Virus record (IMG/VR): IMGVR_UViG_3300020045_000734
Span: 1 to 25,902 of that record
DNA: 25,902 bases
Reading direction: 5' to 3' (one strand)
Source: a virus
Taxonomy: Duplodnaviria > Caudoviricetes
The number at the start of each line of letters is the position of its first letter. Position 1 is the first letter of the stretch. The notes beneath the pieces were generated by a model. It was not told the origin of the DNA, did no database searches, and was given only the letters and a program-made list of their open reading frames with translations. The position numbers and the translations under genes are program-made. Below are positions 538 through 25,902 of this stretch, piece by piece.

Positions 538-3500
538 TTACTCGGCCGCGGTTTCCGCAGGCGCGGGCTCGGCCGAACCGCCGCCGATACCGAGGCCGGC
601 GAGGGAAATCTTCCCGGCGCCCTGGCGTGCCTTGACCTCTTCGCGCATGGCCTCTTGGGCTGCGGCCAGTTCTTTGCGCAAGTCGCCCAGTTCCTCCTGC
701 AGCTTCTCGCTCTTGGCTTCCCATGTGCCGCGCTGTGCGTGAGTCGTGCTGTCGGATGCCGCCATCTTCTCCAGCGCCAGAATTTCCTCTCCCAAGGCGG
801 ATTGATGATCCAACTTGTCCCGGTTCAGCATGTTGAAGCGCGTGTGTGCGCCGTCCGGGTGGTAGGTTAGCGCCCGCAAGTTATACAGGTAGCCCGTGGG
901 CTCGCCGGTAGCCGCTTGCATCAGTGAGTGCGCTTCGTCCGCTACCACCAGACTCCACTGGCGCCGGGCCAGTTGGTCATTCTCTCCAAGATTGGCGTAG
1001 GTTGTGATGACAACGCCCTTGCCTGCGTCTTTGGTGTCTTTCAGGCCGGTGATGTCTAAGCCCATCAGCTTGCCGGACTCGATCCAGTCGGATGCAATCT
1101 TGCTGTCTGGCGCTACGATCAGGGTGTCCGTCTTGCCTTGCAGGGCGAAGCGCTTGATGATGCCAAGTCCGCTAAAAGTTTTTCCTGTACCAGTTCCATT
1201 GGTGAACAACATGCCGTAGCCGTCCTCCTTGGCAAAGCGGTCTTCTGCCAGCTTCACATCGTCTTGCTGGCCGGTGAGTAACTGCGGCAGGGTGGTGCGA
1301 ATGCTGTCAATGTCGCCCAGCGTCACGGGCAACTTGTCAGCCTTGACCTGCTTTAGTTTGGCTTCTGCTTGAGCAGTGCGGCTTGTAGCAACTGCGTCAA
1401 CTTTTGCTGCTGCAATGGGTTCAGGCGGTATTCTTGAGACGCCAGAATCACCGCCTGGTTCACGGAAGTCAGCTCCGGTAACGATGCTCGTAAGCTCGGG
1501 TTGTTCGCCAACAGGATGTAATCGCTGATCGCTTCGTTCTCCAGCAACAGGGGCGCTACCAAACGGTACGCCAGCACTGTCTTGTTGTCCGCGCCCTTCG
1601 CCTCGATTGGATCGTCCACCAGCTTTGGCAGTTGCTGCGTCAGTTCCGTTTGATTCAGGCGAAACAGTGTCGCCCATGGCTGGCTCAGTGCTTGCGACTG
1701 GGCTATCTCGTTCCACACGGCTGTCGGTACTTGGTGCATTTGATTCTCCGTTGCGTTCATTATCGGTCTGTGCGGTGTGGCTTTCAATCTCTGATTTGTC
1801 TTCGATGTTGCTCACCGCGCGAATGCCATCCACGCCAGTCTTGCCGCTGGACATGGAGATATAGGCGCCTTGCAAATGCTCCAGCGTAAGGTCGTCGGCC
1901 ACATCGCTGCCCAGTGCGGCGCGAATCTTGTCCAGTGCAAACTTGGCTGCGTCCTTGAATTTGACGTAGCCCAGCCGGAAGGCGGCATCGAACAACTTCA
2001 CCATGACCGGCAGAATCTTGGCTTCCTGCTCGGGCATCATGTTCATGCGCGTGTTCTTGCCGAAGATGTCGCCAAGGTCGGCCAGTGCTGCCTGTAGGTC
2101 GGCCTGTGCGCGCAGTTCGGCGGCGCTTGGGGTTTTGGCTGTTGGCGCTACTGGATTAGTGGTTGTTTCCGTTTTGGAAACAGGCGCGGGTGCTGATGGC
2201 TCATCAAAAATACTACCCTGCCCACTCAGGTTCTGCTCTGCGTCACCGCCCAGCTCAAAGGTGTCAGCGGCGGCTTCGGATGCCTTGGCAATGTCCTTGC
2301 GTTCACGGTCTCGCTTGTCGGCCAAGTCCTGCGCCTTGCGCTGCGCGGTTTCGGCCTTGGCGGCATTGTCGGCGCGCTCCTGTTGCGCCAGTACCTCGGT
2401 GCGGGTTGGGGTGGTCAGTGTGGGCGCCTCCACATACTCATCTTCCTTGTCTTCATTCAGCGCCTCTTGGGTTTCCTCCCCAAGATTGATCGGTCCGGTG
2501 TATGGCGTGACCTTTGACAGATCAACCCCGCTTGCGTCATAAGTCAGGGTGACGTGCGGCGTGTAGCCCTCGTAGTCCCACGATGCGCCTGCATCACGAT
2601 ATTGTTTCCAGCGTGATTGAAGCTCGTCACTTGCAAACTTCAGAACGACTGCGCCACCATCACCAAGAGGCTCTACTGTGCGTGCTCCGCTTTCAATGCT
2701 GACCGTTGGGCTTGTCTTGCCGGCCTTTGCGCCATCCACCGGCTTGCTTGAGTACGCCACGGTGACGTGCATATCGTTGGCCGGGAGGGTCGTCTTGAAG
2801 CCCTGCGTCTGAGCCCAAGCAATGATGTCGGCGGCATTTGTGACCGCACGGCTGGCGTAAAGCGGATTTGCTACGCCTTCTTCGCTTCCCGCATTGCCTT
2901 GTGCGCCAGCATCTTCGTTGCGACTTCGATTGCTTTCTGCGATGGCTGACGTAAGGGCGTCGCGGGTTGCTTCGTAGTAGTCTTGCTCTGATCCATTGCG
3001 GGTGCCTTCATGTGCGCTCTCTTTAATAGTGTCGGTGTCAATGCCCAAGGCTTCAGCCTGCGCCAGATAGGCGTTCACCTCCAGCTTGATTGGGTCTTCC
3101 AAAGCATCATAGCCCGCCCAGTCGGCGTCGTCCAGCGTGAAACCCATGTCGGAAACAGACTCGAACGGGTCGAAGTCGTCGGCTTGCGCGGATTCTTCTT
3201 GGCTCGTCAGGTAGTCATCAAAGCGCGCCTCGACTTCAGCCTGCGCCGTGGTTTCTGTGCCGTCAGCGGTGTATTGCGGCCTGGTGAAGCTGCGGTTGAC
3301 CAGCGCCACGGTGTCGCTGTGGGTCGCGCCTTGCGGCAGGTAGCCCGCCTCGATCAGCTTTTCAGTGGCTGCATCAATACTCAGTCCGCCGCGCGCGCCA
3401 GCGAACAGTGTGCGGTTGCCCACGCGGGGGTTGTTGCCAAAGCTGAATTCGCTCTTGGTGCTGGCATCCATGCCACCTTCACCTGCGATGAACTCGTGCG

Positions 3501-5991
3501 CCGCCGTTGGCACGCCAGCCTGGCCGGTGCGGGCGATGCCAAGTCGTTTGGCGGCTTGCTGCTCGGCGGCGAGCTGCTTTTCAGTCTTGGGCGCCAGTGC
3601 AAAGCCGCCTTTGGTCTTGATGACGCGAAGCATGGGCTGCAGCTTCTTGGCGGTGGCCGCTTCGTCTTTGGTCTTGAACGGCTTACCGCCTTCGGCCAGT
3701 GGCTTGCTGTTGCGGCCAAGGTGTTCGGGGTCGATGGACTGGGTTGACTTGGCGATTAGACGGGGGTCAGTTGGTTTGGATTTTTTAATCTTTCCAAGAA
3801 TAGCCAATCCATCTTCTTCTGATGCAAATACCGTTACCTTTTCCCCGCGCTCTGCCGCAACAGCAATGCGGTGGCGTCCATCGTTGATTCCAATATCGCC
3901 GCGTGCATTGATGGCAGCTTCGATATTCCCGGTTGATTTTGCGCCGCCTCGAACCGCATTCAGCTTGTCGTTATTCCACACCAAAGCTGAGCCGTTTTCT
4001 TTTTCAAATGCAGCCATGAGCGCTTTCGCGTCAACTTCAAAAGGCTTTTCGTAGCCCTCTCGTCCTGCTGGCTCTTTTGCTACAGTTTCAATAGCTGCTG
4101 ACGCTTTTTTTACAAGGGGTGCGGCCTGTTTTTCCTTCAAAACCGCATAGCCATACTTGCCATTGCGGTTGGCCACGCGAACAACCTCTCCACCATCCAT
4201 CTCAACCTGAAGTTGCGCCAATTCAAGCGGCATGGTGACTGCGCCATCAAAGCGCGGCACGATGCGGGGTTGTGCTTCTGGCTTGGGTGCGGGGATGGCT
4301 GGCGCCTCGGCCACCGGGTCAGGCCCAATGGTTTTATCCGCCAGTCGGTTGAAGGCGGCGCTCATGGCGTTCGGCGCTTCCGTGGCGGCGGCGCGCTGCA
4401 ATGCACCGGCCACCACATCCTGCTCGGCAGCAATGCCGGGGATTTGATTCATCTGCGCCTGCTTGACGCGATCTTGCTCAATCTGTGCCTGCATAACTTG
4501 CAAGTTGCGCTGCTCACTGGCCACCAAGCCATCAAGCTCTTGCTGGTCGAAGTAGCCGGGCGCCACGCTGCGGGCATCAAAGCCTGGGCCTGCGGTCACG
4601 GCATTCATGGTGCCCATGCTGGCGGTCGGTGTCGAAGCCAGTGCGCCCTGCGCCAGTGCAATCGCATGGTCCACACTTGTGACGTTATCCGCCATGATGT
4701 CGGCGGGCTGTGGCGCCAGGCCGGACAGCTTGGCACGCGCGGCCACGCGGTCGGCTTCGGGCAGGCTGTTGATATAGGCGTCCACCTCTGAGCGCCGGCC
4801 GACAGTTCCATCAGGGAATGACAGTAGCGGGTCGGGCGTGTTGCCAAGCTGCAGCGTTTCAGGTGTTTCAGGCGTTGCGGCCGGAGTTGGTGCGGCTGGC
4901 GCCTTGGCACCGTGGATGATGCCGCCAACAGAGCCCATGGCAGCGCCGCCCAGCGCCCCAAGTGCCGCGCCATCGCGGGCTTGCGCCAGTGACGCCTCGC
5001 TGAACGGGTCTTTGCCCTTGCCGTATTCCTCGGCCAGTGTTTGCGCAAACTCGGTGCCTGCCTCAATCGGCGCAGCGCCTGCGGCCGCAACCCCGGCGCG
5101 TGCGGCCGCGCCACCAAAGCCAGTGAGTGACGCGGCCGGCTTGAGCAATTTCGACTTGCCAAGCATGATGTCCAGGCCAACTTTATCGCCCACGAATTCC
5201 AGTGCGCCAGCGCCCAAGGTGGCAGCGAATGCCTTGCCAAGCTCTGAGCCGGTTAGAGCACGGTCTTTGTTTTCAGAGGTCAGCCCACCGAAAATCTCGC
5301 CGCCCTCCATGCCAAACGCACTGGCGCCCACGGCGGCGGTCTGCCCAATGGTGGCAAACTTGGCGGCGATGTTGGCCGTGGCCAGCTTGGCGACTGCATC
5401 AGCGGCCAGTGTTTTACCGGCTTCGCTGGCGGCAATGCTTGCTGCCTCTTTGGCCACCATGCCCTCGGCAATCTGTTTGGCGGCGGTCGATGCTACGAAC
5501 TTGCCACCCACAGCGCCGATTCCGCCCGTGGCCAGCGTTTGAATCGCCTGTCCACCAACATAACCCAAGCCGTGCGCCACCCAGTTGATCAGCGCGCCAA
5601 AGTCGCCTTCTTTTGCCTTGTCGTAAGAGTAGTTCCACGAATCCGACTCTTGCGCCTTGTCGGCAATCTTCTTGCCCCAGTCGTCGTAGCCCTTGATGCC
5701 CGCCTTTTTGATGCCCGTGGCAATGCCGCCCTCGCCCAATGCCGACTCGGCCAGCGCGCCCGCGCCCGCCACCAGGCCCGCACCCAGTTGCGGAAGTTGC
5801 TGGAATGCCTCGGTGGCGCCGCGCTTCAGTCCGCCCCATGCGGATTCTTCCGGCTTGGGCGTTGGCGCTTCTGGCATGTTTTCCAGATGGTCAAGATACG
5901 CAGACAATCCGCCATCCGCGCTGTCTTTATTGGCTGGCTTGCTGTCTGGAAGTTGCTCTAAATACTGGCTCAGTGGATCGCTTGATGGCAT
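538..5991 (-). CDS. Large polyvalent (DarB-like) putative internal virion protein with Gly/Ala-rich N-terminus, ParB/Srx-like domain, Acb1-like 2H phosphoesterase and SF2 helicase; C-terminally truncated at ~615
   Basis: 1817-aa ORF. INDGRHR motif (~3870); HVTVAYS (~2765) and YTPHVTLTY (~2550) paired HxT motifs; Walker A GTGTGKT (1177-1197); VADEAH (~930). No motif III or second RecA lobe before the stop. Last gene of the putative ejection-protein block. Confidence 0.85.
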   Translation of the reverse strand: MPSSDPLSQYLEQLPDSKPANKDSADGGLSAYLDHLENMPEAPTPKPEESAWGGLKRGATEAFQQLPQLGAGLVAGAGALAESALGEGGIATGIKKAGIKGYDDWGKKIADKAQESDSWNYSYDKAKEGDFGALINWVAHGLGYVGGQAIQTLATGGIGAVGGKFVASTAAKQIAEGMVAKEAASIAASEAGKTLAADAVAKLATANIAAKFATIGQTAAVGASAFGMEGGEIFGGLTSENKDRALTGSELGKAFAATLGAGALEFVGDKVGLDIMLGKSKLLKPAASLTGFGGAAARAGVAAAGAAPIEAGTEFAQTLAEEYGKGKDPFSEASLAQARDGAALGALGGAAMGSVGGIIHGAKAPAAPTPAATPETPETLQLGNTPDPLLSFPDGTVGRRSEVDAYINSLPEADRVAARAKLSGLAPQPADIMADNVTSVDHAIALAQGALASTPTASMGTMNAVTAGPGFDARSVAPGYFDQQELDGLVASEQRNLQVMQAQIEQDRVKQAQMNQIPGIAAEQDVVAGALQRAAATEAPNAMSAAFNRLADKTIGPDPVAEAPAIPAPKPEAQPRIVPRFDGAVTMPLELAQLQVEMDGGEVVRVANRNGKYGYAVLKEKQAAPLVKKASAAIETVAKEPAGREGYEKPFEVDAKALMAAFEKENGSALVWNNDKLNAVRGGAKSTGNIEAAINARGDIGINDGRHRIAVAAERGEKVTVFASEEDGLAILGKIKKSKPTDPRLIAKSTQSIDPEHLGRNSKPLAEGGKPFKTKDEAATAKKLQPMLRVIKTKGGFALAPKTEKQLAAEQQAAKRLGIARTGQAGVPTAAHEFIAGEGGMDASTKSEFSFGNNPRVGNRTLFAGARGGLSIDAATEKLIEAGYLPQGATHSDTVALVNRSFTRPQYTADGTETTAQAEVEARFDDYLTSQEESAQADDFDPFESVSDMGFTLDDADWAGYDALEDPIKLEVNAYLAQAEALGIDTDTIKESAHEGTRNGSEQDYYEATRDALTSAIAESNRSRNEDAGAQGNAGSEEGVANPLYASRAVTNAADIIAWAQTQGFKTTLPANDMHVTVAYSSKPVDGAKAGKTSPTVSIESGARTVEPLGDGGAVVLKFASDELQSRWKQYRDAGASWDYEGYTPHVTLTYDASGVDLSKVTPYTGPINLGEETQEALNEDKEDEYVEAPTLTTPTRTEVLAQQERADNAAKAETAQRKAQDLADKRDRERKDIAKASEAAADTFELGGDAEQNLSGQGSIFDEPSAPAPVSKTETTTNPVAPTAKTPSAAELRAQADLQAALADLGDIFGKNTRMNMMPEQEAKILPVMVKLFDAAFRLGYVKFKDAAKFALDKIRAALGSDVADDLTLEHLQGAYISMSSGKTGVDGIRAVSNIEDKSEIESHTAQTDNERNGESNAPSTDSRVERDSPVASTEPAMGDTVSPESNGTDAATAKAGGRSNRGEGRGQQDSAGVPFGSAPVAGERSDQRLHPVGEQPELTSIVTGADFREPGGDSGVSRIPPEPIAAAKVDAVATSRTAQAEAKLKQVKADKLPVTLGDIDSIRTTLPQLLTGQQDDVKLAEDRFAKEDGYGMLFTNGTGTGKTFSGLGIIKRFALQGKTDTLIVAPDSKIASDWIESGKLMGLDITGLKDTKDAGKGVVITTYANLGENDQLARRQWSLVVADEAHSLMQAATGEPTGYLYNLRALTYHPDGAHTRFNMLNRDKLDHQSALGEEILALEKMAASDSTTHAQRGTWEAKSEKLQEELGDLRKELAAAQEAMREEVKARQGAGKISLAGLGIGGGSAEPAPAETAAE
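1353..1739 (-). CDS. Nested 128-aa gene in the +1 frame of the polyvalent protein gene
   Basis: GGAG at 1749-1746, 6 nt before ATG 1739. CTG/GCG/CAG-rich codon usage in this frame. Leu/Gln/Ala-rich helical-looking product (MHQVPTAVWNEIAQ...). The host frame here is a low-complexity linker. Confidence 0.7.
   Translation of the reverse strand: MHQVPTAVWNEIAQSQALSQPWATLFRLNQTELTQQLPKLVDDPIEAKGADNKTVLAYRLVAPLLLENEAISDYILLANNPSLRASLPELTSVNQAVILASQEYRLNPLQQQKLTQLLQAALLKQKPN
2871..3011 (-). CDS. Possible nested 46-aa ORF in the same +1 frame
   Basis: AAAGAGAG 5 nt upstream of ATG 3011. Product MKAPAMDQSKTTTKQPATPLRQPSQKAIEVATKMLAHKAMREAKKA; stop lies just before the 2H domain. Confidence 0.3.
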   Translation of the reverse strand: MKAPAMDQSKTTTKQPATPLRQPSQKAIEVATKMLAHKAMREAKKA

Positions 5992-17812: not shown

Positions 17813-18151
17813 ATGAAAACTATAAACAACCTCACCCCTCAACAGGCAGCTTACTTAGCTGGGCTCATCGATGGAGAGGGTCATATACAAGTTACAACCA
17901 GCAAGCTTGTCGTTGCGATAACGCAAGCAGAAAAGGGAGTTGCGGTTTTGCATTTAGCCAAAAAGTGGATCGGCTGCGGATGCGTCGGACTGCATAGAGC
18001 AGCAATTGGAAATTGGAGTACTGTTTACAGATATAGACTCCAATCTACAAGGCATTGTCTATCGTTGTTTGAGCAACTTAGGCCCTACCTAGTGATAAAG
18101 CAAAATGCCTTTTTGGAGGCAATTTGCAAACTCCCAAAGGGACTTGGGTGA
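17813..18151 (+). CDS. Free-standing single-motif LAGLIDADG homing endonuclease
   Basis: AYLAGLIDGEGHI motif and LRPYLVIK. AT-rich, antisense to the operon. Extended -10 TGGTAAAAT at 17798-17806. Confidence 0.88.
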   Translation: MKTINNLTPQQAAYLAGLIDGEGHIQVTTSKLVVAITQAEKGVAVLHLAKKWIGCGCVGLHRAAIGNWSTVYRYRLQSTRHCLSLFEQLRPYLVIKQNAFLEAICKLPKGLG

Positions 18152-19080: not shown

Positions 19081-19818
19081 TTACCAAGTCTTCGGATTAC
19101 AGGGCCAGCATTCCCATGGTTTGGGTTCTCTGTTCCTGTGATGGATTTGCGCGTGTGCAAACTTTGTTACTGCCAATAGGTTCGACAGTTCATTGTTTGA
19201 CCTGTTACGGTCAATGTGGTGAACTTCAATCTCTGTGCGCAATTTCTTTATGCCATCAACCTCAATGAGGAATGGATGGTTTTGGTCATGCTCAAGAATG
19301 GCGCTCAAGACGATAAGTCGATGGTTGAATGAAAACTTCTCAGAATCATTCACTTTACTTTTGTGCCGGATATATCCGGTGCCAGTTTTGTAAAGCCCAC
19401 CAGTCCATCGCCAGTGCTTCTCTCCTCTCTGAGAAACCGAGCATTCTTCTTTAAACGCAAGGCTTTCGCTTTTGCATTTCATTGAGCAAAACCTAGCGGT
19501 TTCTTTCCGGGTCAATGTGACTCTGAAAGAAACTTTGCACACTTCGCAAACCTTGTAATACCTGACGCTGTCTGGATTGATCTTGTGTTTCAAGCCCTTC
19601 TTGCTTGAGTGATGGCAGGCTGGAGAGCAGTATCTATGTATGGCATCGGGGTTATCCGACTTCGGCCTGCTAAAGGTCGATCCACACTGCACACATGCAA
19701 ACGTAGCCCTTCCAGCTTCAGTTCTGCACTGTCGTGAGCAAAACTTGACCAGATCACTCCTGCGATTTGGGATTGAAAACACATTGCTGCACTGAACACA
19801 AATTTTCTCAACTGCCAT
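19081..19818 (-). CDS. Free-standing HNH homing endonuclease with three Zn-finger-like repeats
   Basis: CxxC...(F/Y)CSxxC three times, GEKHWRWTGG, EVHHIDRNRSNNELSNL...HAQIH. AT-rich; AAGGAG RBS. Confidence 0.9.
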   Translation of the reverse strand: MAVEKICVQCSNVFSIPNRRSDLVKFCSRQCRTEAGRATFACVQCGSTFSRPKSDNPDAIHRYCSPACHHSSKKGLKHKINPDSVRYYKVCEVCKVSFRVTLTRKETARFCSMKCKSESLAFKEECSVSQRGEKHWRWTGGLYKTGTGYIRHKSKVNDSEKFSFNHRLIVLSAILEHDQNHPFLIEVDGIKKLRTEIEVHHIDRNRSNNELSNLLAVTKFAHAQIHHRNREPKPWECWPCNPKTW

Positions 19819-21009: not shown

Positions 21010-21792
21010 TTAGCTGGAGAAACCAGCGTTAAAGTCGTCAATATCCGTTTTGGCAGGCGTGTAACCGCCGGTGCCGCGCGGTGTGGTAGCCGCCTCAAGC
21101 TGCTGTTTTCGTGTGGAGGTTTGTTGCTTGACAGGTGCTGCAGCGGGTGCCGCTTTGAATAGGCGAAGCAAGCGCGATGCATCCCGCACCGAATCCGAGG
21201 CTTCAAGCGCCTTGATGTTTTCGGGCTGGGCTGCAATCCACTGCTGGTACTTGTCGCTTCGGACTTCTTCCATCCAGTCACCATCAACGATGGCATCCAG
21301 GCTGGCATCAATCAGTTGCTTTCGAGTGCCTTCAGTGCGCGTGCTCACCAGTGCCTCGATGGCCTTCGTGTCCACTGAGCCGCCTTTGAGCTTGCCAAGG
21401 ACTTTGTTCAAGCCCTTGATTTGCAGTTCGGCCAACTCTGGGAACTCAGATTGCATCTCGGCAAAGTCTTCGGCAGTCACTTCGACGCCACCGCCAGGTG
21501 CTTGAAGCTGGTTCAAGACCCGTTCAATGCCGCCAATCTTTCCAAACGCGGTGCCAAAGCTCTTCTCTTGTGTCGCGCGCATTTCATCGAGTGATGCGGC
21601 CCGGCTCAAAAGGTCTTGGTACTGCGCTTCGGTGATCTGCGCCAACTTGGGTTGTTCGACTTCTGCCACTTCTTCGACTTCATTGGCGGGCTCTTTTGTC
21701 ACGTCCGGCGTTTCCGTGGGAGTGTCATCAAAACCTGCTGCAAAGTCAGCTTCAGCGGCGGCGTCGTCCATTACCTCTGTTTCACCTGTCAT
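21010..21792 (-). CDS. Putative scaffolding protein
   Basis: 260 aa, acidic and helical, directly upstream of the capsid gene, GGAG RBS. Confidence 0.75.
   Translation of the reverse strand: MTGETEVMDDAAAEADFAAGFDDTPTETPDVTKEPANEVEEVAEVEQPKLAQITEAQYQDLLSRAASLDEMRATQEKSFGTAFGKIGGIERVLNQLQAPGGGVEVTAEDFAEMQSEFPELAELQIKGLNKVLGKLKGGSVDTKAIEALVSTRTEGTRKQLIDASLDAIVDGDWMEEVRSDKYQQWIAAQPENIKALEASDSVRDASRLLRLFKAAPAAAPVKQQTSTRKQQLEAATTPRGTGGYTPAKTDIDDFNAGFSS
21368..21488. repeat. 121-bp exact direct repeat, copy 1 (inside scaffold gene)
   Basis: Identical base for base to 25782-25902. Confidence 0.97.
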
Positions 21793-24838: not shown

Positions 24839-25894
24839 TTATCCTAGTAAGCCCATCGAGGCGTTGTTGTTTGCGTAAGCTGGCAGTGAGCGCACTGGCT
24901 TTTGCCCCGCCTGCATGATTGCTTGGATTCCGCCAGACTCCATTGCCACATATTGCAATGCGTCGTGCGGATGCGAATATTTGTTTTTCATCGCCTCTTC
25001 GGTGTATCGCTCTTCACCAGTCACCTGAATTCGGCGGTATTTGTAACCACCATTGAAGCCCTTGCGCAAGGTCGAGCACCCCATATCAAGCAAAAAAGCA
25101 GGCTGTCCACTTGTCAATTTAGACAGGAACCAAGCCACAGCGCCGCGTCTTGGCAACCATGAATTCGACTTTGCCGCCCTGATCTTCAGTTGCTTTGCAC
25201 GAGCCTCTTGGTAGCACGACTTCTCATCTGACTGCGAGCGCTGCTCACCGGCTGGGTCGCCAATCAGAACGATCATGTCATCCTTCTTTGCCCAATGCGC
25301 CGGGTAGTTGGTAGTCAGGTATGGAATCAAGATGTCCTCAAGGAACTGCCTGAAGCCCATGTCTTCGCCGCATAGCTCATCCAGCACTAGAAGTCGGCCC
25401 CGTGCATCGTTCTGCGTGATGATGGCAGCAGGCGTCAAGCCAAAATCAACGCCAATATTGAGTTGCACACCTTGAATAGCGTAAATTTCTTTGGTGTGCA
25501 GAGAATCATTCCACTCGGGGTATACCGGCTTCCCGTCGTGGACGCTGCCATATTGCCCAAGCACATAGACCTTAATCCACTGCTCTTGCTTGCCTGGTAT
25601 CTGACGCAACCAATATTCATAGCCCAACGTGTGGTTCTGGATATTCTCAGCCAGCGGGTTAGGCGCATAACTTCCGTCTGCCTGCTTTACCAAGGCGCCT
25701 GGCTGCGCAAAGAACTCGTACCCATCAGGGCGTGTCACTTCTGCCAACTCGTAATACCAATGATCTTCATCAGGGCTATTGGTGTCCACTGAGCCGCCTT
25801 TGAGCTTGCCAAGGACTTTGTTCAAGCCCTTGATTTGCAGTTCGGCCAACTCTGGGAACTCAGATTGCATCTCGGCAAAGTCTTCGGCAGTCAC
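24839..25894 (-). CDS. Terminase large subunit, C-terminal part (terminase-like only up to ~25786; the first ~36 aa derive from the scaffold repeat)
   Basis: DTNSPDEDHW coupling-motif region, RNase H-like GVDFGLTPAA, GDPAG and HPHDALQY. Walker A/B region absent. Confidence 0.9.
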   Translation of the reverse strand: MTAEDFAEMQSEFPELAELQIKGLNKVLGKLKGGSVDTNSPDEDHWYYELAEVTRPDGYEFFAQPGALVKQADGSYAPNPLAENIQNHTLGYEYWLRQIPGKQEQWIKVYVLGQYGSVHDGKPVYPEWNDSLHTKEIYAIQGVQLNIGVDFGLTPAAIITQNDARGRLLVLDELCGEDMGFRQFLEDILIPYLTTNYPAHWAKKDDMIVLIGDPAGEQRSQSDEKSCYQEARAKQLKIRAAKSNSWLPRRGAVAWFLSKLTSGQPAFLLDMGCSTLRKGFNGGYKYRRIQVTGEERYTEEAMKNKYSHPHDALQYVAMESGGIQAIMQAGQKPVRSLPAYANNNASMGLLG

Positions 25895-25902
25895 TTCGAC
25901 GC
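25782..25902. repeat. 121-bp exact direct repeat, copy 2 (runs to the window end)
   Basis: Identical to 21368-21488 and joined in frame to terminase at the shared D-T codons. Confidence 0.97.

Follow-up and report, generated by a model that had tools for sequence, protein, structure and literature searches.

Nested Genes and Giant Virion Proteins

Small genes can be nested in the gene of a large enzyme. Thus, traH lies within traI of the IncP plasmids and comS within srfAB, and an action on the TraI complex has been attributed to TraH. These hosts encode a plasmid relaxase and a chromosomal synthetase, whereas the gene described here is nested in that of a helicase that would be delivered by the virion. 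In phages, spanin genes can be embedded, as is Rz1 in Rz, and the nested product then partners the product of the host gene (PMC5295617, in its accessible part). Like Rz1, the gene described here is fully nested, out of frame and has its own start. Unlike Rz1, which is a lipoprotein of the lysis cassette, its product holds no cysteine in 128 amino acids, is predicted to be soluble and is encoded within the neutral linker of a virion enzyme. Rz/Rz1 pairs are annotated in the phages Parlo and PEp14, and that of Parlo lies elsewhere from the nested gene. Nested partner genes as such are therefore already known; what appears to be new here is a nested family tied to a reversed helicase-methylase module, its replacement at the ATG and a specific model of binding.

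The host gene resembles those of the P1 DarB-type polyvalent proteins, i.e., giant multi-domain genes located at the end of the virion module and encoding an SF2 ATPase, an N6-adenine methylase (TP and NPPF motifs), LPD38/LPD39, SLT, 2H and PLxRFG. As in these proteins, several conflict domains are gathered in one large protein within a virion gene context, which makes it a polyvalent protein. In the canonical dyad, whose archetype is P1 DarB, the methylase precedes the helicase (PMC5512222, main text), and this order is seen in SopranoGao as well as in P1. By contrast, the helicase comes before the methylase in the type studied here (7 of 8 relatives, those with a methylase match), instead of an LPD36-methylase located N-terminal to the SWI2/SNF2 ATPase, and the matches to the Strawberry-notch C-lobe are weak (PF13871, 16-36 bits for a cut-off of 30.5). 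The methylase motifs TP and NPP(Y/F) are invariant columns of the consensus of the relatives, the window itself ending before the methylase. From the precedent of P1 DarB (PMC5512222), the giant protein would be packaged and injected.

Another small protein tied to DarB function, Ulx (146 aa), is encoded beside darB in P1 (accessible parts of PMC9024508 and PMC12810830). The nested protein is comparable in this respect, but Ulx is encoded downstream of darB without overlap and the two proteins share no sequence similarity; a homology was rejected by comparison of a profile with the single Ulx sequence (hhalign probability 0.1-0.2%). In the openly accessible literature, as distinct from subscription journals and the polyvalent-protein FTP files, no description of the nested gene was found. 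It is not mentioned in the body of the papers on ZX1 (PMC9505181), Parlo (PMC6606913), POI1126 (PMC5492332) and polyvalent proteins (PMC5512222), supplements apart, and the main text of the latter, as distinct from its FTP supplements, contains neither "overlap" nor "TnpV".

Organization of the Locus

The window, i.e., the whole stretch of 25,902 nucleotides that was analysed (Caudoviricetes record IMGVR_UViG_3300020045_000734), carries on its minus strand the larger part of a podophage-like virion module, including portal, major head protein, adaptor and internal proteins (Table 1).

Table 1. Features of the giant virion protein gene and of the gene nested in it (positions in the window).
Feature	Position	Strand	Remarks
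Giant polyvalent (DarB-like, PLxRFG-type) virion protein gene	538..5991	-	Cut near residue 1800
Unrelated tail of the giant ORF	538..614	-	Probably a chimeric join or a truncation
First lobe of the SF2 (SWI2/SNF2-related) ATPase, predicted binding partner	592..1335	-	From about residue 1553
DEAH of the helicase	939-928	-	
Motif after Walker A	1113-1096	-	
Walker A of the helicase	1203-1177	-	
Host-frame linker reading through the nested gene	1351..1740	-	Sequence-neutral, never interrupted
Nested gene, 128 aa + TAA	1353..1739	-	+1 frame of the giant ORF; eight helices predicted
Shine-Dalgarno GGAG	1746..1749	-	6 nt ahead of the nested ATG; from sequence
Sigma-70-like promoter match, TTGAAA-17-GATAAT	1759..1787	-	Just upstream of the nested gene; candidate only
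Small domain directly before the nested ATG	1777..2106	-	Two database proteins have it joined to the nested family
Acb1-like 2H phosphoesterase domain, N-terminal arm	2440..2865	-	PF23474, E 2.6e-40; residues 1043-1184

The protein of 1817 residues encoded by the giant ORF is incomplete: the protein match to a relative ends at residue 1800, the DNA match to locus L001 ends near position 614, and the giant proteins of the relatives reach 3,160-3,910 aa. Of the helicase, the window would thus include the first lobe only, after which comes a probable chimeric join. At its other end, the last 124 bases (25779-25902) copy positions 21365-21488, from the scaffold gene, onto the terminase frame. Given the early end of the giant-ORF match and this repeat, both ends of the assembly are probably chimeric. 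The colinear stretch extends well beyond the nested gene on either side.

The nested ORF is present just as it had been described, i.e., in the +1 frame, with an ATG at 1739 placed 6 nt after GGAG and a stop at 1353, just before the helicase. It spans residues 1418-1547 of the 1817-aa ORF (5991-538). The contrast announced between about 70% of G/C-ending codons in the nested frame and mostly A/T-ending codons in the host frame is found in the third-position GC (0.71 versus 0.35), and codon adaptation, with the 17 other genes of the window as reference, is 0.70 versus 0.51. In the same way, the host residues said to be linker-like consist for 78% of G, S, A, P, R, D, E, Q or K, versus 55% in the helicase. 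When the giant gene is read by windows of 128 codons in steps of 64, the +1 frame outscores frame 0 in only one of them, which is the nested ORF. The length of this ORF alone is no proof, since the same +1 frame is open over 215 codons elsewhere in the giant gene; what exceeds chance is its conservation.

The Acb1-like 2H domain located in the arm of the virion protein suggests an injected anti-CBASS activity. Inspection by eye points to an HNH-like ORF, rich in A/T, that follows the head gene (19081-19818) and to a plus-strand ORF resembling a LAGLIDADG endonuclease (17813-18151).

Conservation and Selection of the Nested Frame

A protein search led to 121 homologues of the nested protein, sharing 42-89% identity and mostly 118-144 aa long. 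Eight GenBank phage records match it at 35-40% (Parlo, ZX1, Skulduggery, Vibrio D274, Vibrio 1.232.O, Ruegeria 45A6), and the same eight are recovered whether the nested protein or the helicase is used as query. In the six phage regions that were fetched, the nested ORF has an ATG and a purine-rich leader, lies in the +1 frame inside the giant gene and is unannotated. The hosts of the phages and prophages with this family include Proteobacteria, Bacteroidota, Firmicutes and others, yet even the six cultured phages checked carry it without annotation.

Among 232 loci, 217 have a match of at least 25 bits, corresponding to 164 distinct nested sequences. The start codon is ATG in 162 of them and GTG in two, and a Shine-Dalgarno 4-mer precedes 127 of the 164 starts, versus 624 of the 6201 other +1 ATGs (10%). 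The homologues are 116-144 aa long, with the sole exception of one ended by a contig edge; for six rows with a stop inside the HMM-aligned stretch, this stop was taken as the terminal one from the lengths. The ribosome binding site, the ATG and the stop-free +1 frame, whose conservation had been proposed as a check, are therefore maintained in the homologues. Seven loci (L119, L183, L195, L205, L210, L220 and L221) have a nested start without Shine-Dalgarno, preceded by an A/T-rich leader, and several of them are labelled Bacteroidota. Such leaders are presumably linked to this host phylum, and the nested initiation signal seems to follow the host.

Simple counting, uncorrected for transitions, over 53 independent pairs, sequences shorter than 110 aa being set aside, gives a dN/dS of 0.31 for the nested frame (bootstrap 0.27-0.35) and of 1.17 for the host frame (1.07-1.30), as expected if selection acts mainly on the nested frame, which had been the initial claim. 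Furthermore, amino-acid identity is higher in the nested frame in 13097 of 13203 pairs. No host-frame stop is found across the nested ORF in any of the 164 distinct sequences, and a synonymous T making such a stop occurs at none of the 3584 possible sites, for 456 expected. The host frame is near neutral in sequence yet protected from stops. Dual coding is seen here in an unusually clean form: one frame is selected for its sequence and the other only for its openness. The term "overprinted", used in the initial annotation, probably reverses the order: the nested frame is the constrained one, and the host linker looks like a by-product. The nested ORF is almost certainly a real gene.

In metagenome contigs, the host frame is open in 61 of the 65 distinct nested sequences, and the helicase is in frame in 52. 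The other four sequences come from contigs of 1.1-2.4 kb, and the remainder without helicase are short or decayed-looking. No free-standing intact copy of the nested gene was clearly found among these 65 sequences.

Association with the Helicase-Methylase Module

In order to avoid selecting on the nested frame, 160 loci were chosen by their helicase (best 80 of 406 viral matches and best 80 of 126 genome matches), with a profile whose source loci had initially been detected by means of the nested protein. A nested homologue lies in the +1 frame in 144 of them. In two loci the homologue is weak (full-length +1 ORFs scoring about 15 bits), in one it has a frame break, and two loci are too short. 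In 11 loci, the 2.5 kb fetched lack the homologue in all three forward frames; these are all stand-alone helicase genes that start 25-61 codons after a stop and have no N-terminal arm. These stand-alone genes (L136, L149, L173, L182, L185, L198-L200, L211, L229 and L230) encode a helicase-methylase, many of them in Bacteroidota, in a non-structural context.

About a dozen loci hold 90-370 codons between the nested gene and Walker A. No conserved host-frame start that could allow reinitiation of the helicase is found from -31 to +60 nt around the nested stop. In locus L057, the P-loop of the helicase is interrupted after Walker A by an insertion that we take, from its motif, to be an intein.

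Exchange of the Module and Second Nested Family

Comparison of two phages of the same genus, ZX1 and SopranoGao, suggests how the nested gene and its surroundings evolve. Residues 1-1025 of their arms are 98% identical. At the DNA level, they resemble each other up to about the nested ATG, beyond which both the nested gene and the enzyme module differ. SopranoGao carries the canonical methylase-helicase order and, in the +1 frame, another gene, of 108 aa. The nested gene thus appears to be part of the enzyme module and not of the arm.

This second nested family is present in 21 GenBank records. It occupies the same spot, ahead of the canonical methylase-helicase module, in SopranoGao, LASTA, SJM3, Pavtok, PEp14, Stean, Itty13, VvAW1, PBC5, POI1126, Mwe-JY07 and Atu_ph08, as genes of about 100-110 aa (L237:4951-5274, L238/L239:3625-3939, L241-L305) that are unannotated in the records fetched. 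Among 54 distinct viral sequences, 53 have an ATG, 53 a Shine-Dalgarno and none a host stop; dN/dS, computed without L254 and short rows, is 0.28 for the nested frame versus 1.09 for the host frame. The match of this family to TnpV (PF14198) is below the cut-off (E 0.0035), and the helicase-tied family has no TnpV match in Pfam. When the two families are compared by hhalign, the probability is 1.6% (P 0.03) over 22 columns only, and they are not demonstrably related. A screen for ORFs with ATG, Shine-Dalgarno and at least 80 aa detected no nested ORF in P1 darB, F116 and douglas 12A4.

Predicted Structure and Partner

The amphipathic helical bundle proposed from the sequence agrees with the AlphaFold prediction of eight helices, made with confidence (pLDDT 89, pTM 0.84). 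No usable family match was obtained in Pfam, PHROGs and NCBIfam, nor any usable fold match in ESM Atlas or by Foldseek on PDB and BFVD, and VIA comparison over 48,161 chains gave no usable match (best Z 4.3). This lack of library match does not show a new fold.

The proposed co-fold with the helicase domain was made with the 803-residue core of the relative L073, because the helicase of the window is cut, and with alignments of 137 loci (138 paired loci without L057, which has the putative intein after Walker A). L073 and the window share 95 of 124 residues of the nested protein and 73% identity over the part of the core present in the window. The co-fold places the nested protein in the ATP cleft with an ipSAE of 0.75, versus 0.01 for the best of three controls. 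Of solved complexes, 116 of 157 attain the ipSAE mark used, as do 2 of 215 mismatched pairs; with these alignments, such counts are valid only roughly. The runs agree in at least 85% of the contacts, and the partner pLDDT is at least 89.

The modelled interface includes Walker A (46-55), residues 77-91, Walker B (135-143) and residues 251-252, 519-522 and 542-557, the last three being presumably motifs III, V and VI. Nested residues 102-103 contact G50 and G52 of the P-loop in the model, and residue 103 is D or E in 99% of the 137 rows. The interface holds six of the ten conserved polar, P or G positions while covering 46 of the 124 residues, which is a weak enrichment, and the most conserved nested residue, E67 (98%), lies outside it. 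The 25 best predicted contacts show some covariation (mean z 0.45 versus 0.08 +/- 0.14 for matched controls), which is not independent of the model as it uses the same alignments. Over the whole interface, the mean z is 0.02, and an unguided scan between the two proteins, with about 118 effective sequences, gives no outlier (best z 5.4 versus 9.6 within the core).

Among solved structures, the core has only distant relatives (SNF2/Rad54, XPB and DEAD-box proteins), so that recall of a like complex by the model is not obvious, though possible. Models may also readily fill a cleft such as the deep pocket between the RecA lobes. Overall, it is likely from the co-fold that the nested protein binds the helicase, and its placement at the ATP site cannot tell an inhibitor from an escort or an activator. 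Of the roles guessed in the initial annotation (chaperone, inhibitor or separate anti-defence factor), a helicase-binding inhibitor or escort is thus favoured, the separate factor less so.

Possible Functions of the Nested Protein

The reading preferred here, to which a probability of about 0.55 can be given, is that the nested protein is a cognate inhibitor, i.e., a safety catch, of the helicase-methylase motor. Wedged between the two RecA lobes, it would cover Walker A, Walker B and motifs III, V and VI, and its acidic residue 103, set on the glycines of the P-loop, could mimic a phosphate. The giant protein would be packaged and ejected with the DNA like P1 DarB. Separate translation of the same message would yield the small protein, which could block ATP turnover during late synthesis and packaging before being left behind or stripped at ejection. 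The enzyme would in this way act only on the incoming phage DNA. As for its origin, a two-gene cassette (small partner and helicase-methylase) could have been joined to a virion-targeting arm, this joining taking the form of a read-through of the small gene in another frame.

It can be suggested, more tentatively, that giant DNA-modifying virion proteins carry a linker-hidden, module-specific inhibitor of the SNF2 ATP site that acts through an acidic phosphate mimic, in a cassette starting at the nested ATG, and that an unrelated nested partner replaces it when the module is swapped. If true, polyvalent phage genes would follow a general design rule, and a new class of natural inhibitors of SNF2-type ATPases would be revealed. 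The nested gene adds a missing component to a widespread anti-restriction machine, and the safety catch would explain how a potent DNA motor-methylase can be produced late without acting on the producing cell. If the model is right, an SNF2-type ATPase can be inhibited by a small protein, and such soluble partners may ease the expression and study of DarB-like proteins.

Alternatively, but rather improbably, the small protein could be a folding or packaging escort of the giant protein, as Ulx would be, inhibition not being the point. The co-fold fits such an escort equally well, the nested gene accompanies only the arm-bearing virion form of the helicase, and P1 Ulx, listed as "Aids DarB localization", sits in the head (PMC9024508, in its accessible part). 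However, the nested protein shows no homology to Ulx and its predicted site is the catalytic cleft, not a hydrophobic surface.

An independent factor expressed from an internal promoter, involved in anti-defence, in superinfection exclusion by lysogens or in partnership with the upstream domain, seems more doubtful still. The sigma-70-like site (one found for 0.6 expected) has a counterpart in 22 of 161 homologues, several of them close relatives, versus 1-7 per 153-164 in ten control windows, but is missing in the 139 others. Two database proteins, P0121 and P0122, which are the two longer forms of the nested family found among 8000 candidates scored, have it fused to the small upstream domain, present once or twice, and not to the helicase; however, the helicase follows the nested gene at nearly all of the 164 loci, and two profiles of this upstream domain match only 90 of them. 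That many loci are prophages or phage-plasmids would suit a factor acting in lysogens, whereas the swap of the nested gene together with the enzyme module and the lack of any clear free-standing intact copy, the host frame being kept open in nearly all metagenome sequences, argue for the tie to the enzyme that the safety catch supposes.

A programmed +1 frameshift, leading to a shortened giant protein that ends in the nested domain, is very improbable. Frameshifted forms are common in phage structural genes and the +1 frame of the window is open over the 26 codons or so that precede the nested ATG, but the ATG and Shine-Dalgarno are conserved at a fixed position, and a +1 stop stands directly before the ATG in 17 of the 164 sequences and within five codons in 47. 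Lastly, that the nested ORF is an untranslated by-product of host-frame constraints is hardly credible: long +1 open frames do arise by chance in this GC-rich giant gene, as the 215 codons mentioned above, but the start, Shine-Dalgarno and length are conserved, purifying selection acts on the nested frame only and the predicted fold is confident.

Other Frames in Giant Genes

Some nested-family proteins (P0093, P0043 from L308, and L316) continue in frame into a sequence resembling the start of the helicase, owing either to fusion or to sequencing error. Some giant genes may hold several nested genes. In L324 (2-361), a further +1 ORF, TnpV-like by eye and missed by the profile, is located in another linker upstream of the helicase-tied nested gene. 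In the record of Itty13 (L243, NC_070969), the annotated genes and the giant DarB-like frame are on opposite strands; over the stretch examined, this frame is open.
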